In this document: positions 6,000-14,381 of the stretch, piece after piece
How the letters are laid out: each line of letters begins with the position of its first letter
How positions within the stretch are numbered: position 1 is the stretch's first letter
Notes under the pieces: generated by a model
The model's input: the letters and a program-made list of their open reading frames with translations, nothing else
Told to the model about the DNA's origin: nothing
Databases searched by the model: none
Translations under genes and position numbers: made by a program
NCBI GenBank assembly: GCA_043732185.1
Contig: JAYTHY010000050.1
Span: forward strand, 4,067-68,066
Reading direction: 5' to 3'
DNA: 64,000 nucleotides
Source of the DNA: Fibrobacteria bacterium
GTDB taxonomy: Bacteria; Fibrobacterota; Fibrobacteria; UBA11236

Positions 6000-6362
6000 T
6001 TACCGGCTGGCTTCGAGTAATTTGTTTTTTTCTTTATCGTCCCCGTTGATCTCACGGAGCACGACCTTCATTTCAAATTCTTCCCGGTCTACATTTTGCA
6101 TGAAAAAAGGATCTCGGGAAAAGTCCCGGTTGATAATCGAGCCTTTAATATCCTCGTCTCCGGAAGCACCGGGCATCAAAATATAAATGGCTGGAAGTTC
6201 GGTTTTTCCAAAGATCTCGATATTGGTCAACAAGTGATCTTTTTTCTTTGCTTCAGCATCCTCAGCGCGGGCATTTGTCCCTTCAAAAACCAGGAGCCCT
6301 ACGAAAATAAAAGCAGCTGAAATCCTGGCGTGCACGGGAACCTCCGGTAAAGCGGTGCTCAT
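6000..6362 (-). CDS. Small exported protein, GltF/CglF-like
   Basis: Signal-like N-terminus, then IEIFGKTELPAIYILMP...VDREEF, resembling the GxxELPxxxYIxP...DRxxF pattern of GltF/CglF-like proteins. Start taken at ATG 6362. Confidence 0.5.
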   Translation of the reverse strand: MSTALPEVPVHARISAAFIFVGLLVFEGTNARAEDAEAKKKDHLLTNIEIFGKTELPAIYILMPGASGDEDIKGSIINRDFSRDPFFMQNVDREEFEMKVVLREINGDDKEKNKLLEASR

Positions 6363-6403
6363 ACTATAAGTTGAGGACCAGGTATTGTCAATTGGTATCC
6401 TGC

Positions 6404-7405
6404 CTATGCCCAACGCAGCGAAGGTTGAACTTCAATATTGCCGGTTAAAAGGCCGTTATTGGCGCGCCATTGTGCGATTGCAGCTATCATTGCGCCATTG
6501 TCGCCACAATAAGATTGAGCAGGGAAAATCGCACGGAAACCGCGTTTCTTTGCTTCTATCTGCATTCTTTCCCGCAAATAAACATTCGCGCTAACCCCGC
6601 CTACCACCGCCAATGTTTCCAATTGCGTGGCAAAAAGTGCTTGCATGGTTTTCTTGACCAATACATCAACGATAGCGCCTTCAATGGATGCACAAATATC
6701 GATGAGATTACTTTGCAAAAATTCTGGGGTTTGCGTTTCCGTATAGCGCAAAACGGCGGTTTTTAACCCACTAAAGGAAAATTCGAAATTATCCCGCTGG
6801 TCCAGGGCCTTGGGCAAAGTGACGAAATTGCGTTTTCCAGTGGCCGCCAAGCGAGCCAATTGAGGTCCGGCTGGATATCCGAGGCCCAGGATTTTACCGC
6901 TTTTATCAAAGGCTTCACCTGCAGCGTCATCGCGGGTTTTTCCAATGAGCGTGTACTTGAGACCCTCATCCACGCGACAAAATTCCGTATGGCCGCCGGA
7001 AACGACCAAGCACAGAAACGGCGGTTTTAGACTGGGCTCCTCCAGAAAAATGGAAGCTAAATGCCCTTCCAAATGGTTCACGCCTTCTACCGGTTTGGAT
7101 AAATAGCGGCCTAGAGCGCGGGCAAAAGAAGCACCAACGAGTAAGGGACCCAATAGCCCTGGACCCCGGGTAAAGGCAATTTGATCCACGGAATCCAGTG
7201 TCAAGGAGGCATCTGCCAAGGCCAGCCGGACAATAGGATCGATTTTTTCTAAATGGGCCCTGGCGGCAATTTCAGGAACTACCCCCCCGTATTCGGCATG
7301 AATGGGGATTTGGCTGTAGACTTGATTGGCTAAAACCCGCATTTCGTCATCCACGAGTCCGCAGGAGGTTTCGTCGCAGGAAGTTTCAATGCCCAAGGTT
7401 ATCAT
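6404..7405 (-). CDS. tsaD: tRNA N6-adenosine threonylcarbamoyltransferase
   Basis: LGIETSCDET, YGGVVPEIAARAH, VNHLEGH, VSGGHT, TRDDAAGEAFDK, FSFSGLKT, DNGAMIA. Confidence 0.98.
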   Translation of the reverse strand: MITLGIETSCDETSCGLVDDEMRVLANQVYSQIPIHAEYGGVVPEIAARAHLEKIDPIVRLALADASLTLDSVDQIAFTRGPGLLGPLLVGASFARALGRYLSKPVEGVNHLEGHLASIFLEEPSLKPPFLCLVVSGGHTEFCRVDEGLKYTLIGKTRDDAAGEAFDKSGKILGLGYPAGPQLARLAATGKRNFVTLPKALDQRDNFEFSFSGLKTAVLRYTETQTPEFLQSNLIDICASIEGAIVDVLVKKTMQALFATQLETLAVVGGVSANVYLRERMQIEAKKRGFRAIFPAQSYCGDNGAMIAAIAQWRANNGLLTGNIEVQPSLRWA

Positions 7406-7475: not shown

Positions 7476-9383
7476 ATGAATTACGTGAATATGACTACAG
7501 CAAATATCAGCAAACAAGACCTGCTTAAAACTTTTTTACCGCTGGCCGATAGTGGTAAGACATTTCTGGAAATCCTACTGGTAAATCCTAAATCCATGAA
7601 AGTGGAGGGGCGTGGATTTTTCAACGATGTAGATTTTCTCATGGACACATGTAAACCACTGTTAGGTAGGTTTAATTTTTGTCTCAGCAATTTCGGATAC
7701 CCACATGACAAGGTTCCAAGCCGCGGCGCCTTGAACCAATTCGATCGAACTTTGTTGGACTCCTCCCTGCAGGATCAGGCCAAAGTGCATTCCTTGTCTA
7801 TAGCCATGTTGTTCAAGCCGGAACTGATCCGCGAAATGACTGAGCAAGGTGTGAGCCTGGACCAGTTTTTGAATATCAAATATCAAATCGATTCGATTTT
7901 CAGCCGTTTGAATATCAGCAACTACGGGCTGGATTATTTCCTTTCCGGAGTCGTCCTCCGCTTTCAACCGGCCGAAGCTTTGCAGCAACGACCTTTGAAC
8001 AAGGCTGCACTGATTTTGGTGGCCAAACATTTGATTGGGTTGGTCGAAAAGAAAATGAACGGGCAGGAAGTGAAACGCTTTTCCTTGACCTCTTCTGTAT
8101 TGGGAAAAGTATTGGACCCTATGCCGGGTCTACCTGGCATTTTCGCAGGTGAAGCCTCGGGAAGCATGACCGTCCTATCCTCCGGCTCTTTGGAACAGGG
8201 GGAGAACGCCATTTTCCAGTCGATATTAGAAGATGTTTTCGAGCCAAAAGGCAAGCCTGGTAAAGAAGGGCACACGGCTCCCAATACCACTGGACTCAGC
8301 CAAAACTGGCAGGAGACGGAAGAGGTCCAGTTTGAAACGAGGCCCGTTCACGACCTTGAACCGGATCACGAAACACATTCGTCCCGAGCTAAGGAAAGAT
8401 ATTCCGACCCCAAGGAACAACTTAATTCCAAAGAGTTGATGACCTTTTTTAATACTCGATCCCAAACTCCATGGCATTGGCCGCTTTATTCCAGCCTCTT
8501 CAACCGTATTTATGGGGGATTGGCTTGTGGCGAATTGCTCCTTTTGCAAAGCGACCCATTTGCCGCCGAACTCGCTTACCATTTTTTAATTCAAGGCGCG
8601 GAAGATTTCTGTAAGGAAGGCAAAGGCCAGTTTCTGATTTTTTCGAAAAAGCGATCCCTGGGAGAGCTGGCCCTCTCTTCCCTTTCTCGCCATTATAAAA
8701 CCAACCCCCTTACATCCACGGCTCCGTCCAAACCAGACAACGCAACTTTAGCCAAAACCTATGCGGCTCTCTTTCCAAACGCTCCGCAAATGCCTGTCTG
8801 TAACCGTGGCGATGGGTTGGAACAACTCTTAAAGTATTTGGAACATGATTATCTTTTGAAACAGAAGAAAAAAGGCGGTCAATTGGCGCCGTTGATCATC
8901 GTTGTGGACAACCTCAGCGAATTCAGCCAAGGCAACCCTGACGAAGACTTCCGTCGCCTCTCAGCCATGAAACTGCGTTTGGCTGAATTCAACAGTTCCT
9001 TGTGGGTTACCCAAATGCGGCCCGCAGATCCTCTGGCTCAGCAACCCTTGCTGGCCTTAGCCAATTACCTCATCACCGTGGACCACAATGGCGCGCAAGA
9101 GGGCAGCGCTCCGAGTAAGCTTGGACAACCTTCCAAGCCTTCTGATTGGGAGGCCGGATTCCACGCCGAATTCACAGCAGAAATGCTCATTAAGGAATTC
9201 TCCTTGTTGAAGATCCGCTTTCAATCCCATGGTTCACACCGTAATTTCCAAAGCCACTATGCCTACCACCGTCCGTCCTATTTGTTCCATGAGATCAATC
9301 CTGCCCCTGCCTCCGGGCAGAATGCATCCGTAACTGTAACGAGCGCATCCCCGCCGCAAACCCGTACGCCCGCCCAGTCCTAA
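7476..9383 (+). CDS. Hypothetical protein; degenerate AEP-primase-like N-terminus plus degenerate DnaB-like (SF4 helicase) C-terminus
   Basis: 635-aa intact ORF. The C-terminal half follows DnaB motif order (GGLACGELLLL, FLIFS, IIVVDNL, LWVTQMR) but lacks the Walker A GKT. The N-terminus resembles AEP primase scaffolds without DxD or His. Confidence 0.7.
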   Translation: MNYVNMTTANISKQDLLKTFLPLADSGKTFLEILLVNPKSMKVEGRGFFNDVDFLMDTCKPLLGRFNFCLSNFGYPHDKVPSRGALNQFDRTLLDSSLQDQAKVHSLSIAMLFKPELIREMTEQGVSLDQFLNIKYQIDSIFSRLNISNYGLDYFLSGVVLRFQPAEALQQRPLNKAALILVAKHLIGLVEKKMNGQEVKRFSLTSSVLGKVLDPMPGLPGIFAGEASGSMTVLSSGSLEQGENAIFQSILEDVFEPKGKPGKEGHTAPNTTGLSQNWQETEEVQFETRPVHDLEPDHETHSSRAKERYSDPKEQLNSKELMTFFNTRSQTPWHWPLYSSLFNRIYGGLACGELLLLQSDPFAAELAYHFLIQGAEDFCKEGKGQFLIFSKKRSLGELALSSLSRHYKTNPLTSTAPSKPDNATLAKTYAALFPNAPQMPVCNRGDGLEQLLKYLEHDYLLKQKKKGGQLAPLIIVVDNLSEFSQGNPDEDFRRLSAMKLRLAEFNSSLWVTQMRPADPLAQQPLLALANYLITVDHNGAQEGSAPSKLGQPSKPSDWEAGFHAEFTAEMLIKEFSLLKIRFQSHGSHRNFQSHYAYHRPSYLFHEINPAPASGQNASVTVTSASPPQTRTPAQS

Positions 9384-9446: not shown

Positions 9447-10328
9447 TTGATGAAAAACCAGCTCGGCTATCTGTTCATCGAAGCCTTTCGCGGATTCCGC
9501 TCCGATAAGTTTCTATCCGTAACCTCCGTGATAACCATCGGCATTTGTACTTCCGTAGTGGCGGGATTGGTACTGACTTTTTATCTCGTCTGGTCCTTGG
9601 GTGGGGGCGGCACATCCGACAGTGTGGTCCGTGTTTTTCCTGGATCCAAATTTGAATCGCAGGAAGCCCTGGACGCCTTGGAAGCCAAGCTCCACCGTTT
9701 GCCGGGATTGGACTCCATAGTTTTTGTGAGCAAAGACGACGCCCTGGAAGAATTCAAACGGGATTTTGGGGATGAAATGGTCCGTTCCTTGGACTGGAAT
9801 CCGCTACCGCATTCCTTTTTGCTTTACTCGGCCAATGGATACCGGACGGCTTCCCAGAACCGGTTGCTCCTCGATCGCATTAAACTATTGGAAGAAGTGG
9901 AAGAGGCCAGTGCCAATTCACTTTACCTGGACTGGCTGGAAAAATGGCGTTTGCCGGTGGAAATGGGTTCAACCTTGCTGATATTGCTGGTAGGGGGAGC
10001 ACTCTCACTTATCATTCATAATTCCGTGAAGCTCAATCTCTATTCGCGCCGCATTCTGGTTGAGAATATGAAATACTGTGGGGCGGGAGAGTTTTTCATC
10101 CTGGCTCCATTCTTAATGGAAGGGCTACTACTGGGAATTTCCGGTAGTTTGATCGGCGTCACCACCTTGGCCTTTTTGCTTTGGCTAGCAAGGTTCATCT
10201 CGCCTACTATTCCCGCGTTAGTACCGTTTTGGACGTGTGCGACGATTTTGCTGGCATCCACGGCCGGTATTGCCGCCATCGCCAGTTTACGAACCGTGCA
10301 GTCTTTCCTCCGGGGTTCGACACATTGA
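9447..10328 (+). CDS. ftsX: Cell division permease-like protein FtsX
   Basis: TM1, periplasmic FVSKDDALEEF...NPLPHSF, then IHNSVKLNLYSRR...MKYCGA...PFLMEG, with 4 TM in total. Confidence 0.93.
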   Translation: MMKNQLGYLFIEAFRGFRSDKFLSVTSVITIGICTSVVAGLVLTFYLVWSLGGGGTSDSVVRVFPGSKFESQEALDALEAKLHRLPGLDSIVFVSKDDALEEFKRDFGDEMVRSLDWNPLPHSFLLYSANGYRTASQNRLLLDRIKLLEEVEEASANSLYLDWLEKWRLPVEMGSTLLILLVGGALSLIIHNSVKLNLYSRRILVENMKYCGAGEFFILAPFLMEGLLLGISGSLIGVTTLAFLLWLARFISPTIPALVPFWTCATILLASTAGIAAIASLRTVQSFLRGSTH

Positions 10329-11500
10329 TTCCATTTCTGTCCCGCGCCATACTGAGCCTGGGAATGCTTGTACTTTGGCGTGGTGGGGCTTTAGCAGCGG
10401 ACCGGAATAACTTCGATCGTGAAATAGCCAGGCAGCGCGGGGAACTGGAAGAATTGCGCTCTCGTTTGCTGAAAGAACAACGGGAGCTGGAAACCCTAAA
10501 AGAAAAAAAGGAAAGTACGCTGGGCCGATTGGATAAAATTTCCGCCAACATACAACATGCCGAGCAATATCTATCCGAACTGGATGCCACAGAAGAAACC
10601 TTGGGTCGTTCCCTATCCAAGGTCAAACACGATCTCGAAAAAGTGGAAGGTCGCATCCAGGAGCGCAACGGCATCATATCCCGAAGAGTGCGCACACTTT
10701 TTATCACTGGAGGTCCAGACCGGTTGGTGCTATCTGGCTGGCAATCCGGGCAAGGGGATTTCTTACGCAAAGTGTTTTTCATGAAACGTGTGATCCGCTA
10801 TGACAAATCCCTGGTCAAAGCCAGCCGCGAAGATATGGCGTTAAAAGGAAAAACTGTCGCCAAATTAGACAACCGCATGGCTGAACTCACCACCTTCCGC
10901 ACCCACAAATCTCATGAACGCGAAACCTTCAGTCGTGCCAAAGCCGAACAAGAGAAAAGCCTATCCGCACTGCAAAATGACGAAGCGGCCAAACGAGAAG
11001 CGTTGAAAGAAATGGAGGAAAACGCCACCCTGATCACCGAGATTATCGCAGCCTTAGAAAAACGTCGCCTGCAGGAAATCGCCCGGCATAAAAAAGCCGC
11101 GGAATTGGAGACGGGATCCAAATACTGTCTGCCGGTGGAAGGAGAGGTGATTTCAAAATATGGGCTTCAATACCATGCGACCCTTAAAACCACTACGAAA
11201 AATCTCGGCATTGAAATCCGTGGAAAGTTCGGAAGTTCCGTGCGCGCTGCGGTTAGTGGCGAGGTGGCCATGGTCACTCGCCTTCCCGGTTACGGCATGG
11301 GTGTCATCCTGGATAATGGCTCTGGATTCTTTACCATATACGCCAATCTGGCCGGGATAAAGGTTCGGCCGGGGGATAAGGTCAAAACCTGCCAAGATAT
11401 CGCCACTGTTTCCGTAGAAACTGAGCGGGTGTATTTTGAGGTTCGCAAGGGCACTCGCACTTTGGACCCAGTGGATTGGCTGCGATCCTCAGGGAAGTGA
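10325..11500 (+). CDS. envC: Murein hydrolase activator EnvC-like (coiled coil plus degenerate M23)
   Basis: TTG start overlapping the ftsX stop; signal peptide, long coiled coil, and an M23-like domain (PVEG...NLGIEI...YANL...VYFEVR) lacking the Zn ligands, as in EnvC. Confidence 0.88.
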   Translation: MIPFLSRAILSLGMLVLWRGGALAADRNNFDREIARQRGELEELRSRLLKEQRELETLKEKKESTLGRLDKISANIQHAEQYLSELDATEETLGRSLSKVKHDLEKVEGRIQERNGIISRRVRTLFITGGPDRLVLSGWQSGQGDFLRKVFFMKRVIRYDKSLVKASREDMALKGKTVAKLDNRMAELTTFRTHKSHERETFSRAKAEQEKSLSALQNDEAAKREALKEMEENATLITEIIAALEKRRLQEIARHKKAAELETGSKYCLPVEGEVISKYGLQYHATLKTTTKNLGIEIRGKFGSSVRAAVSGEVAMVTRLPGYGMGVILDNGSGFFTIYANLAGIKVRPGDKVKTCQDIATVSVETERVYFEVRKGTRTLDPVDWLRSSGK

Positions 11501-11544: not shown

Positions 11545-12660
11545 ATGATTCATTTTAGCCGCACCCTGGGATTGGACGAAGCCAAAACGTCCCTGGCCCA
11601 CGCCCTGACCACCAATACCTTCCCGCATGCGTTACTCGTGCACGGACCGGAAGGGGTAGGCCAAAACGCACTGCTGTTGGACCTTGTCGACTTATTGATT
11701 TGCGAAGCTGAAGAGACACGTCCCTGCGGCCGATGTGCCGGATGCCTGGGTCGCAAGCGCAACAACTTGGATAACATCATTTTTATCATGCCATTGGAAA
11801 AAAAAGAAAAGGCTTCCTCGGAAGGAGAAATAGAAGGCAATCAGGTTGAGGAATTGACCCAGAAAGCTAAAGAATTCCACGCCGACCCATATGGATTCGT
11901 TCGCACGGAAAAAAGCCGCATCAACATTGCCCAAATACGCGACCTGAAATCCCGCTTGGCCTTTGCGGAAGTTTCCGGTCGTCCACGTATTGTTGTCCTC
12001 TTATGGGCCGAGACCATGCCGCAAGAGGCCGCCAATGCGTTGCTGAAAACCCTGGAAGAGCCGCCCGCCAACACCTTCTTTCTTCTCTCGTGCGAAGACC
12101 GATCCTCGTTGTTGCCCACCATTGTTTCTCGCTGCACTCAAATTGCCCTCTTGCCTTTTGAACCTGGACCTTTCGCGGCTCTTTGTACCGCGCATGGAAA
12201 GGCCTTAGGCCTCGACACCGCAGCCACTCGCCTATTGCCTTTTGCGGATGGATCAATGGGAATATTGCTTAATCTACACCGTAACGGTGGCGATACCCTA
12301 CTGGAAGAAGCGCGACTTTTCCTCGAGGCGGCCTTGGGCGGTGATTGGCGGAATTTTGCCGATTATCTGGAAAGTTCCGATGCCTTTGCCGATTTGGAGA
12401 CATCGGCAAGCTTGCTGCATTTTCTCCTCCGCTTGTTACGCTTGTACCACCGTTTAAAAACCGAGGAAAACCAAGGAATCGATCCCGAATTGGCCCACTG
12501 CTTCATTCCTTTAGCGACAGGTCCCAGCCTGGATGCCTTGGCCCAACTTGTGGAAGAAATCCTGGCAGCCGTCCAGTCCTATGCCAAACCTAAGGTAGCG
12601 GCCCTGGGACTCTTTCTCGACTTCGAAGCGAAATATGCCCGTAAAGAAACGCCAGCATGA
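11545..12660 (+). CDS. holB: DNA polymerase III subunit delta'
   Basis: HALLVHGPEGVG, Zn motif C..(PCGRCAGC), AANALLKTLEEPP, LLPTIVSRC. Confidence 0.93.
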   Translation: MIHFSRTLGLDEAKTSLAHALTTNTFPHALLVHGPEGVGQNALLLDLVDLLICEAEETRPCGRCAGCLGRKRNNLDNIIFIMPLEKKEKASSEGEIEGNQVEELTQKAKEFHADPYGFVRTEKSRINIAQIRDLKSRLAFAEVSGRPRIVVLLWAETMPQEAANALLKTLEEPPANTFFLLSCEDRSSLLPTIVSRCTQIALLPFEPGPFAALCTAHGKALGLDTAATRLLPFADGSMGILLNLHRNGGDTLLEEARLFLEAALGGDWRNFADYLESSDAFADLETSASLLHFLLRLLRLYHRLKTEENQGIDPELAHCFIPLATGPSLDALAQLVEEILAAVQSYAKPKVAALGLFLDFEAKYARKETPA

Positions 12661-14381
12661 TAAAGCCCCCGACGACGCTGCCCATCATCGTCAAACCCGA
12701 AATCTCCCTTCATCCCAAACGATTGGACTTGGCCGCCGCCATCAACGGTCCTCAATTTGTAGCCGATTTGCTTTTGTCAAGAGGCATTGAGGAAAAGGAA
12801 CTGGCCCGCGATTTTTTTCTGGCCCCGCTCGGCAATTCCCAAGCCGAACCGGACCCCATCCCTATGCTGGGCATGGAAAAAGCCATAGACATTCTGCTTG
12901 AAGCTTTGCTTCGAAGCGAAAAAATAATCGTGCATGGAGATTACGATGTCGACGGGGTAACTGCTACGGCACTGCTCTACCTGGGATTAAAAGCATCCGG
13001 ATTTGAGGTGGACTGGTTCATCCCCAACCGTTTTGAAGAAGGCTATGGCATTTCTTTCGCAAGCGTAGCCAAGATTCATGCACGTGGGGCCCGCTGGATG
13101 ATCTCCGTGGACACGGGGATTTCCGCGAATGCCGAAGTCGCACGCGCCAAGGAATTGGGCCTTGGAGTCATTCTGACCGATCACCATCAAGCCTCGGGTG
13201 AATTGCCCCCGGCTGATACCATCATAAATCCCAATCAACCAGGTTGTCCCTATCCCAATAAGGGGCTCTCAGGGGTTGGCGTAGCTTACAAGTTACTGAA
13301 CGCCTTGTCCCTGCGCATCAAAAATGAAACAGCCGAAAAATATCTGGATTTAGTCGCCCTCGGAAGCCTAGCTGATAATGTTCCCCTGCTGGGTGAAAAC
13401 CGCAGGTTGGTGAAAGCGGGTCTAAAGCAACTCGCGTCGACGCCCAGTCTCGGCGTGCGTGCTCTTTTAGAAAGGGCTGGTCTGGAAAGAGGCCAAGTCA
13501 CTTCTGGAGAGCTGCTGTTCAAAGTCACTCCAATGCTCAATGCCATGGGCCGCATGGGCAGTCCAGAAATCAGCCTCCGATTGCTCCTGGCTGAAAGCGA
13601 AGGCGAGGCCACTCGCTGCTTGGATTTGATGGAGACGGAAAACAAAAAACGACGAAAACTGGATCAGGCCATTACCGTCGAGGCTGTAAGCATGGTAGAG
13701 AACGATCCCAGCCTGCAGGCTTCCGGGTGCTTGGTCGTGGCGTCAGAAAATTGGCACGAGGGTGTCATTGGCATTGTTGCGGCGCGCATGGTGGAACGGT
13801 ACCTGCGACCGTCATTTGTACTGGCCATCGATGCCAAAACGGGTTTGGCCAAAGGCAGCGGCCGCACCATTCCGGGTTTCAATCTGCACAAAGCTTTGGG
13901 AACGGCACAGTCTCTTTTGGAAAAATGGGGCGGGCACTACTATGCATGCGGCTTGACCCTAAAAACTGAAAATATCGATGGCCTACGCAACCTCATGAAC
14001 GCCGCTGCGGCCGAGCATCTGGCCGAAAAAGATTTTACCCCCCGTATCTCGCCAGTGGTGGAAATCGCTTTAGCCGGTTTGAATGAGGAGTGTATGGCGT
14101 GGCTGCGACGCTTTGAACCTTTCGGACCTTTAAACGAAAGCCCATTATTCTATTCGGAAAATGTGGATCTCATGGCTATACCCCGTGTGGTAGGGGAAAA
14201 GCATTTGAAACTTTCTCTCGGTCAATCAGGCATACAATTTGATGCCATCGGTTTCAATCTTGGGTATCTAATGGATTACGTTTTGGATAGATCCAGGTTG
14301 TCCAAGCTGGCATATTATCCAGAATGGAACACCTTTCGTGGTGTTCGAAAAATTCAACTCAGAGTCGTCGCGCTGGAATGA
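12657..14381 (+). CDS. recJ: ssDNA-specific exonuclease RecJ
   Basis: GDYDVDG, PNRFEEGYG, VDTG, TDHH, WHEGVIGIVA, GSGR, EPFG; ATGA overlap with holB. Confidence 0.97.
   Translation: MIKPPTTLPIIVKPEISLHPKRLDLAAAINGPQFVADLLLSRGIEEKELARDFFLAPLGNSQAEPDPIPMLGMEKAIDILLEALLRSEKIIVHGDYDVDGVTATALLYLGLKASGFEVDWFIPNRFEEGYGISFASVAKIHARGARWMISVDTGISANAEVARAKELGLGVILTDHHQASGELPPADTIINPNQPGCPYPNKGLSGVGVAYKLLNALSLRIKNETAEKYLDLVALGSLADNVPLLGENRRLVKAGLKQLASTPSLGVRALLERAGLERGQVTSGELLFKVTPMLNAMGRMGSPEISLRLLLAESEGEATRCLDLMETENKKRRKLDQAITVEAVSMVENDPSLQASGCLVVASENWHEGVIGIVAARMVERYLRPSFVLAIDAKTGLAKGSGRTIPGFNLHKALGTAQSLLEKWGGHYYACGLTLKTENIDGLRNLMNAAAAEHLAEKDFTPRISPVVEIALAGLNEECMAWLRRFEPFGPLNESPLFYSENVDLMAIPRVVGEKHLKLSLGQSGIQFDAIGFNLGYLMDYVLDRSRLSKLAYYPEWNTFRGVRKIQLRVVALE

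Follow-up and report, generated by a model that had tools for sequence, protein, structure and literature searches.

Mobile-element primase-helicases, whether they combine Prim-Pol with an AAA_25/DnaB-like domain or are of the T7 gp4/Twinkle type, consist of an N-terminal domain, a linker and a RecA-type C-terminal domain. Pseudo-ATPases with a RecA fold are known in eukaryotes, as in Elp4/5/6 and the Rad51-paralogue Shu/Psy3-Csm2 proteins, and in many bacteria ftsE lies immediately upstream of ftsX. Here we analysed a stretch of 64,000 nucleotides from a member of the Fibrobacteria (assembly GCA_043732185.1, contig JAYTHY010000050.1, positions 4,067 to 68,066 of the forward strand), hereafter the window, in which an uninterrupted reading frame of 635 amino acids (aa) at 7476-9383 (+) precedes ftsX. 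The original prediction, made from the letters of the DNA, held this gene to be an intact but apparently catalytically dead primase-helicase fusion, captured from a mobile element, in the ftsE slot of an ftsX-envC-holB-recJ cluster. Our results make it probable, at a moderate level of confidence, that the product is a lineage-specific pseudo-ATPase accessory protein, in which a RecA-type core without a P-loop is joined to an orphan N-terminal domain and whose gene heads the ftsX-envC cluster.

Pfam-level searches were blind to the C-terminal half of the protein: at E ≤ 10, none of 46 family members matched PF03796 or TIGR00665, and PF06745 (KaiC-like) gave no match, a functional P-loop not being present. 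Profile-profile tests against KaiC-like, DnaB and RadA proteins were therefore built from Fibrobacterota genomes. Results showed that a C-half profile of 78 sequences aligned with the merged KaiC-like, DnaB_C and RadA cores at an hhalign probability of 90.8% (P 1.2e-6, score 52.8, 177 colinear columns), with merged KaiC and RadA at 83.7% (P 8e-6), with merged KaiC-like and DnaB_C at P 4.2e-4 over 157 columns, and with DnaB_C alone at P 0.013; alignments to KaiC/RadA/DnaB-type cores spanned 177-187 columns. As controls, reversed templates gave P 0.04-0.32 (0.042 for the merged template), the reversed query gave P 0.06-0.17, and nine unrelated family profiles gave P ≥ 0.018 with 11-63 aligned columns. 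When 175 single proteins of the same genome were ranked against the C-half profile, RadA came first, a KaiC-like protein second and another KaiC-like protein 15th. Language-model features (Atlas) of the homologue P0023 returned 30 matches, 15 of which were DnaB_C/KaiC/AAA_25 clusters (scores 0.91-0.92, 173-179 of 256 features shared), and the other 15 were unnamed clusters.

The alignment also located the motifs of the fold. In the objective profile-profile alignment, GGLACGELLLLQSDPFAAE lay over the strand plus Walker A, and GK[ST] was found at the aligned Walker A site in none of the 81 members, which read QSDPFAAE or ESNSY there. The aspartate of the Walker-B-like strand, D478, was retained in 79 of the 81 members, the next residue being N or G and not E, and the segments LWVTQ and ANYLITVDH aligned over the strands after Walker B. 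No conserved arginine-finger motif of the KxRxG type was seen in the family, the position of such a finger not being fixed by sequence. A self-association prediction for two copies of residues 265-612 returned ipSAE values of 0.01 and 0.01, which give no verdict either way. Because the profile alignment, its controls, the rank test, the language-model neighbours and the placement of the motifs agree, the assignment of the C-terminal ~290 residues to the RecA superfamily, as a core of KaiC/RadA/DnaB type that lacks the P-loop, is supported. Much of what had been predicted from the letters was thus recovered: the frame is intact in the ORF (open reading frame) listing and in its translation, two conserved blocks (residues ~6-262 and 325-612) are joined by an acidic linker at residues 263-324, Walker A is replaced, the catalytic Glu is gone from the SfEE segment, whose columns are never E, and the loss is shared by the orthologues, the P-loop being replaced in 81 of 81 members. 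The predicted DnaB/SF4 motif order was reproduced by profile-profile alignment, but the attribution to DnaB was not, as DnaB could not be separated from the KaiC/RadA branch.

The gene is real and under strong purifying selection. Among 5.8 billion proteins searched by word index, with lengths of 133-1112 aa covered, 48 homologues of 36-91% identity were found, all unnamed or titled 'hypothetical protein' and none with a Pfam domain, and an exhaustive phmmer search of 1.84 billion cluster representatives gave 21 matches, every one a family member or a fragment of one. An alignment of 46 sequences (A1) held 63 invariant columns, among them EGRGFFNDxDF, NQFDR, DPxPGxPG, GLSQxW, WxWP, GxxCG and NxxLW. 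Since M6 is the first residue in at least 90% of the homologues in this alignment, translation probably begins at the ATG at 7491. Compared with the 91%-identical orthologue in L008, the ratio of nonsynonymous to synonymous substitution rates (dN/dS, Nei-Gojobori) was 0.084 overall, within the range of 0.011-0.115 that the same method gave for the housekeeping neighbours (tsaD 0.037, ftsX 0.011, envC 0.115, holB 0.068); by part, the same pair gave 0.040 for the N-domain, 0.12 for the linker, 0.088 for the C-domain and 0.54 for the tail (23 codons). That the ORF is mis-called, or is a decaying and non-functional remnant, is barely conceivable. Every complete copy is intact, stops are confined to low-quality or fragmented matches from metagenome-assembled genomes (MAGs), and the dN/dS, the invariant columns and the 48 homologues all speak against it, while we found no point in its favour; the survey of orthologues likewise showed syntenic copies under selection rather than a strain-specific leftover. 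The highest Kyte-Doolittle mean over 19 residues was 1.15, so that no segment resembles a membrane span and the protein is predicted to be soluble.

No Pfam or NCBIfam model covers this family, which is uncharacterised, measures ~590-650 aa, falls into two clades and occurs in uncultured freshwater and sediment Fibrobacteria. The 635-aa protein itself had no Pfam or NCBIfam match at E ≤ 0.01; at E ≤ 10, no primase, helicase or ATPase family of Pfam, PHROGs or PADLOC was matched by more than one of the 46 aligned homologues, and the family profile had 0 matches among PDB sequences. No paralogue was found when the ORFs of the same genome were searched by hmmsearch with each half (best E 0.55), and the sources partly accessible to our literature search held no earlier description of such a protein. 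The second clade consists of f8 proteins of ~588 aa that are ~24% identical to the first clade, with 35 members found, and the clear homology of the two clades extends along the whole protein (hhalign 98.9%, 554 columns). Across both clades (81 sequences), 26 positions are at least 97% conserved: E32, L35, G47, F49, D51, D53, N87, Q88, F89, R91, R144, R162, D214 and G218 in the N-domain, and G273, L274, W278, W333, G348, G352, E376, R405, D478, W510, W558 and F604 after it. Contigs taken at one genome per species held 18 loci, all from MAGs, with Fibrobacteria, Fibrobacterota or Fibrobacteres in the title of 17 and 'uncultured bacterium' in that of the remaining one. In a profile search of the phylum, 32 of 296 Fibrobacterota genomes carried the family, namely 21/31 in f1 (14/14 in g1, the genus of the window, 2/12 in genus g6), 1/1 in f3 and 9/12 in f8, and it was found in 0/151 and 0/46 genomes of the two largest families, f6 and f13; the gene is missing from 10/12 genomes of g6 and from 6/6 of family f2. 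These tallies and those for DciA given below include the unpublished genome G254, on which the values for g1 (14/14 for the family, 13/14 for DciA) partly rest. A search of sequencing runs listed 20 DNA holders, which were sediment and freshwater metagenomes.

The N-terminal half is an orphan by sequence. All 7 matches of its profile were fragments of the same family, with no relative outside it, a search of PDB profiles gave one chance match only (a capsid protein, E 0.23), and the N-half of P0023 alone found no usable match by language-model features (Atlas). The original prediction had set this half beside the archaeo-eukaryotic primases (AEPs) on a consensus of motifs, which is one part of the reading that an AEP plus DnaB/SF4 fusion was captured from a mobile element, lost both active sites and was domesticated as a scaffold. 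That reading draws on the RecA/DnaB/KaiC-type C-half without a P-loop, on the phage DnaB_C/AAA_25 proteins among its nearest language-model clusters and on a layout like that of Prim-Pol/AAA_25 and T7 gp4-type proteins. Under permissive hhalign settings the N-half is moreover colinear with LigD Prim-Pol over 200 columns, with GFFND over FFQK, LSGVVLRF over SGxxGLH and DP over the motif III Asp, but controls scored as well. Against the LigD_Prim-Pol profile PF21686 the N-half reached P 0.068-0.11 over 80 columns, the best unrelated control reaching 0.046, and eight LigD Prim-Pol sequences took places between 58 and 173 among 178; the Prim-Pol profile PF09250 gave P 0.17-0.55, within the control range, and DnaG/Toprim and the DnaB N-domain gave no signal. 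The power of this assay was low, LigD and Prim-Pol, two true AEP families, reaching only P 0.0085 against each other, and an AEP origin of this half, though unsupported, is for that reason left undecided rather than refuted. With the AEP motifs I (DxD), II (sxH) and III (hD) in view, D51-x-D53 and D214 are invariant and H105 is so within clade 1 only, a correspondence that a fold would have to decide. Two other candidates for the N-half were rejected: a second RecA-like domain from a KaiC-style duplication (P 0.19-0.5, RecA-like profiles and the protein's own C-half giving no signal), and a match to a radical S-adenosylmethionine ORF (P 0.0023, 48 columns), judged to be chance.

The history of the gene bears on the same question. 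Its G+C fraction is 0.487 and that of the genome 0.492, and it is single-copy. The identities of the 635-aa protein and of FtsX across loci (91/99, 64/81, ~53/77, 43/54, 39/60, 35/53, 30/44 and ~25/33, protein/FtsX in percent) fall in step, which fits vertical co-descent, and a tblastn search with each half against 50,697 phage records found nothing relevant. On these sequence comparisons the gene is best described as vertically inherited and specific to some Fibrobacteria. Capture from a mobile element was not borne out, and with composition, copy number, co-divergence with the neighbours, the phage search and the lack of any Pfam or PHROG primase match in 46 members at E ≤ 10 all standing against it, we consider the captured primase-helicase unlikely.

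The pattern of conservation in the N-domain suggests, from the alignment, that the invariant D51-x-D53 and D214, N87-Q88 and the three arginines form a functional polar site. On one view this domain would be an active enzyme or a ligand-binding module of a new family, and the dead RecA-like domain would serve for oligomerisation or regulation only. E32, D51, D53, N87, Q88, R91, R144, R162 and D214 are indeed at least 97% conserved across clades that are ~24% identical, and no other part of the protein has so low a dN/dS, but the searches yielded no family, fold or ligand for it, and conserved polar residues equally fit an interface with protein or nucleic acid. We hold this view to be doubtful. 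The linker that follows is rich in indels and carries GLSQNW, whose place between the N-domain and the RecA-type core presumably recalls the polymerisation motif of Rad51/RadA; the motif may be a docking site.

The place of the gene in the chromosome was compared across loci. The annotation of the neighbours as tsaD, ftsX, envC, holB and recJ was upheld by Pfam and NCBIfam matches (table). Among related loci, tsaD lay upstream of the gene in 17 of 18, ftsX and then envC lay directly downstream in all 11 that had downstream DNA, and holB followed in 9 of the 11. The order gene-ftsX-envC-holB-recJ recurred in 3/3 loci of the ~24%-identical clade, the f3 locus L028 read tsaD-gene-ftsX-envC as far as its sequence reaches, and the complete genome G274 (L022/L029) had gene-ftsX-envC with no holB or recJ after it. 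The 63-bp gap between the gene and ftsX held no convincing terminator, only a weak hairpin. In five relatives without the gene, tsaD and ftsX abutted divergently in four, with gaps of ~0-160 bp, and were separated in the fifth by a 1.4-kb stretch that has two ORFs on the strand of tsaD; no remnant of the gene was detected at the locus (best E 0.15), and no FtsE-like match was found over 13-14 kb. Five more genomes (f6, f13, f15) had no ftsE upstream of ftsX-envC within 1.5-kb flanks. Altogether ftsE adjoined ftsX in 0/10 comparison loci without the gene, and ftsX led the cluster in all 10. A genuine FtsE is encoded on another contig of the same genome (G000:C88:52872-53525, locus L112:4846-5532; TIGR02673 272.5 bits, cut-off 264.85), and the 635-aa protein has neither a PF00005 match nor a Walker A. 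Since loci without the gene also lack ftsE and a genuine FtsE lies elsewhere, the gene is an extra first member of an ftsX-led cluster and not a replacement of ftsE; the predicted 'ftsE slot' has no counterpart in the loci that lack the gene, and the canonical ftsE, dnaB and dnaG were all located elsewhere in the genome.

An alternative to a role in division is that the protein partners DnaB, HolB or RecJ in replicating or repairing DNA, its place before ftsX being inherited order devoid of functional meaning. The RecA/DnaB-type domain and the presence of holB and recJ in the cluster in 9/11 clade 1 and 3/3 clade 2 loci would suit it, but in G274, and in L028 as far as it was reached, only gene-ftsX-envC is present, and DnaB (contig C95), DnaG, RecA and RadA are all encoded elsewhere in the genome. 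A substitution for the helicase loader DciA was considered and rejected, as DciA occurs in 116/121 genomes of the class irrespective of the presence of the 635-aa gene. We regard a replication or repair role as rather unlikely. A further version, in which an ancient primase-helicase-like protein lost its ATPase site before the two Fibrobacteria families split and has since been retained over a very long period as a novel cytoplasmic part of the FtsX-EnvC machinery for cell-wall splitting, docking for example through GLSQxW or the N-domain, seems to us quite improbable.

We return to the pseudo-ATPase accessory protein. Without a P-loop the C-domain could not bind or hydrolyse nucleoside triphosphates in the canonical way, so that the protein would act by binding and not as a motor. 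Its partner would be a protein or a nucleic acid, possibly with self-association, and a role as a ring scaffold or in DNA binding is conjecture. The gene is probably co-expressed with the FtsX-EnvC module for septal cell-wall hydrolysis, and its loss in several relatives, mostly with small genomes, would make the protein an accessory and non-essential factor. The likeliest functional site, for a ligand, a metal or a partner, would be that formed by E32, D51-x-D53, N87, Q88, R91, R144, R162 and D214 of the N-domain.

Several points weigh against this account. Against single-family templates the C-half reached only P 0.013-0.017, its match becoming strong once the families were merged, and the ~25 combinations of query, template and mode that were run bring a conservative corrected P to ~3e-5. 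In the rank test single-sequence RecA was 99th and the DnaB C-domain 109th of 175. The fold of the C-half was assigned from language-model features and sequence profiles. Despite the lost P-loop, nucleotides might still be bound in a non-canonical manner, and an enzyme rather than a scaffold could lie behind the invariant polar residues of the N-domain. The link to FtsX and EnvC is one of gene order, which inheritance could explain because holB and recJ share this order without a known functional link to ftsX. Among the listed holders of the sequencing-run search there was no RNA run.

Table. Position and supporting evidence of the features of the 635-aa gene and its neighbours in the window
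Feature	Position	Strand	Evidence
Whole ORF, 635 aa (P0001)	7476..9383	+	48 homologues at E ≤ 1e-3; dN/dS 0.084
N-terminal domain, residues ~6-262, orphan by sequence	7491..8261	+	conserved in both clades; dN/dS 0.040
Acidic, hydrophilic, variable linker, residues 263-324	8262..8447	+	isoelectric point 5.03; grand average of hydropathy -1.54; dN/dS 0.12; many indels in A1
GLSQNW motif within the linker	8292..8309	+	G273, L274 and W278 ≥97% conserved in 81 sequences, both clades
C-terminal RecA-superfamily (KaiC/RadA/DnaB-like) core without P-loop, residues 325-612 (assignment supported)	8448..9311	+	hhalign 90.8%, P 1.2e-6; rank test; language-model neighbours; dN/dS 0.088
Walker A-homologous position, QSDPFAAE (residues 358-365) instead of GxxGxGK[ST]	8547..8570	+	profile alignment
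FSKKRS (residues 389-394), at the position of the SfEE catalytic-Glu segment	8640..8657	+	profile alignment; columns K/T/S and R/K, never E
Walker-B-like strand IIVVDNL (residues 474-480)	8895..8915	+	profile alignment
Variable P/Q/S-rich C-terminal tail and stop codon	9312..9383	+	A1; dN/dS 0.54 over 23 codons
tsaD, divergent, 70 bp from the ORF	6404..7405	-	TIGR03723 405 bits, cut-off 296
ftsX, 63 bp downstream	9447..10328	+	PF18075 (FtsX_ECD) E 1.8e-11; TIGR00439 139 bits, under cut-off 255
EnvC-like coiled-coil/M23 (LytM) protein	10181..11500	+	PF01551 E 1.1e-16; PF24568; NF008644 72 bits, under cut-off
holB (DNA polymerase III delta')	11545..12660	+	PF13177 E 2.5e-40
recJ	12657..14381	+	TIGR00644 493 bits, cut-off 397

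Some features of the surroundings were recorded in their own right. The EnvC-like ORF, as called from a TTG, shares 148 bp with the end of ftsX (10181-10328); its homologues align no earlier than about residue 29, and in most cases from residues 42-117 onward, so that the real start probably lies downstream of the TTG. An ORF of 137 aa at 6000-6413 (-), between an amidohydrolase gene and tsaD, had no Pfam match and was found at the same place in 17/18 related loci with 48-91% identity. In family f6, a protein of ~330 aa with an N-terminal hydrophobic helix (membrane-anchored) is encoded directly upstream of tsaD and co-oriented with it (L115:2379-3386, L116:372-1394, L117:454-1434); opposite ftsX it takes the place that the 635-aa gene has in the window, and the two are unrelated. 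On contig C88, the genuine ftsE has an envelope-gene setting and is accompanied by two SurA/peptidyl-prolyl isomerase-like genes, a methyltransferase, a YbjQ-like gene, a MurA-type gene of the 5-enolpyruvylshikimate-3-phosphate synthase family and a PBP4 (S13)/AmiA-like fusion. A second DnaG-like match on the same contig, which is weak and contains an in-frame TAA (C88:41377-42363; E 1e-9 and 6e-5), lies ~8 kb away from the true dnaG and could represent a primase that is degraded or belongs to a mobile element. A LigD-type Prim-Pol gene was present in 3/3 sampled genomes of the same genus (G251, G252, G255) and was not found in the genome of the window.

For annotation, the family gains one solid domain assignment. 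Should the link to FtsX be true, a bacterial fold of RecA/DnaB type would have been kept as a pseudo-enzyme and wired to septal hydrolysis by FtsEX-EnvC, and a new orphan domain with an invariant acidic and arginine site would be added. If the reading as an ancient primase-helicase in the divisome were true, a previously unknown class of divisome accessory proteins would have arisen from the fold of a replication enzyme. The gene bears on the regulation of FtsX in a phylum in which ftsE lies apart from ftsX at every locus examined.

Compared with described systems, the C-half is colinear with the KaiC-like, RadA (Sms) and DnaB_C ATPases (PF06745, PF03796, PF13481) over 177-187 columns, through strand, loop and helix, the SfEE segment, Walker B and the next strands. 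It differs from them in lacking a P-loop, the catalytic Glu and any recognisable arginine finger and in scoring below every Pfam threshold. Where DnaB has its own N-domain, RadA its zinc finger and KaiC a second KaiC domain, this protein carries an unrelated N-domain. With mobile-element primase-helicases it shares the layout of a ~260-aa N-domain, a flexible linker and a RecA-type C-domain, whereas its N-domain lacks significant similarity to Prim-Pol, LigD or DnaG/Toprim, its gene is chromosomal and vertically transmitted, and its ATPase site is catalytically incompetent. FtsE, an ATPase of the ATP-binding cassette (ABC) type, is matched only in the position directly before ftsX; its fold class is another, and the match to the ABC profile (P 0.023) is confined to 63 columns around Walker B. 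The likeness to Elp4/5/6 and Shu/Psy3-Csm2 is one of concept, as these proteins, in another domain of life and another context, keep a RecA-like fold as a scaffold for binding or oligomerisation after loss of the nucleotide site. RecA-fold pseudo-ATPases are thus known elsewhere, and what is new here is a RecA-type domain without a P-loop fused to an orphan domain.

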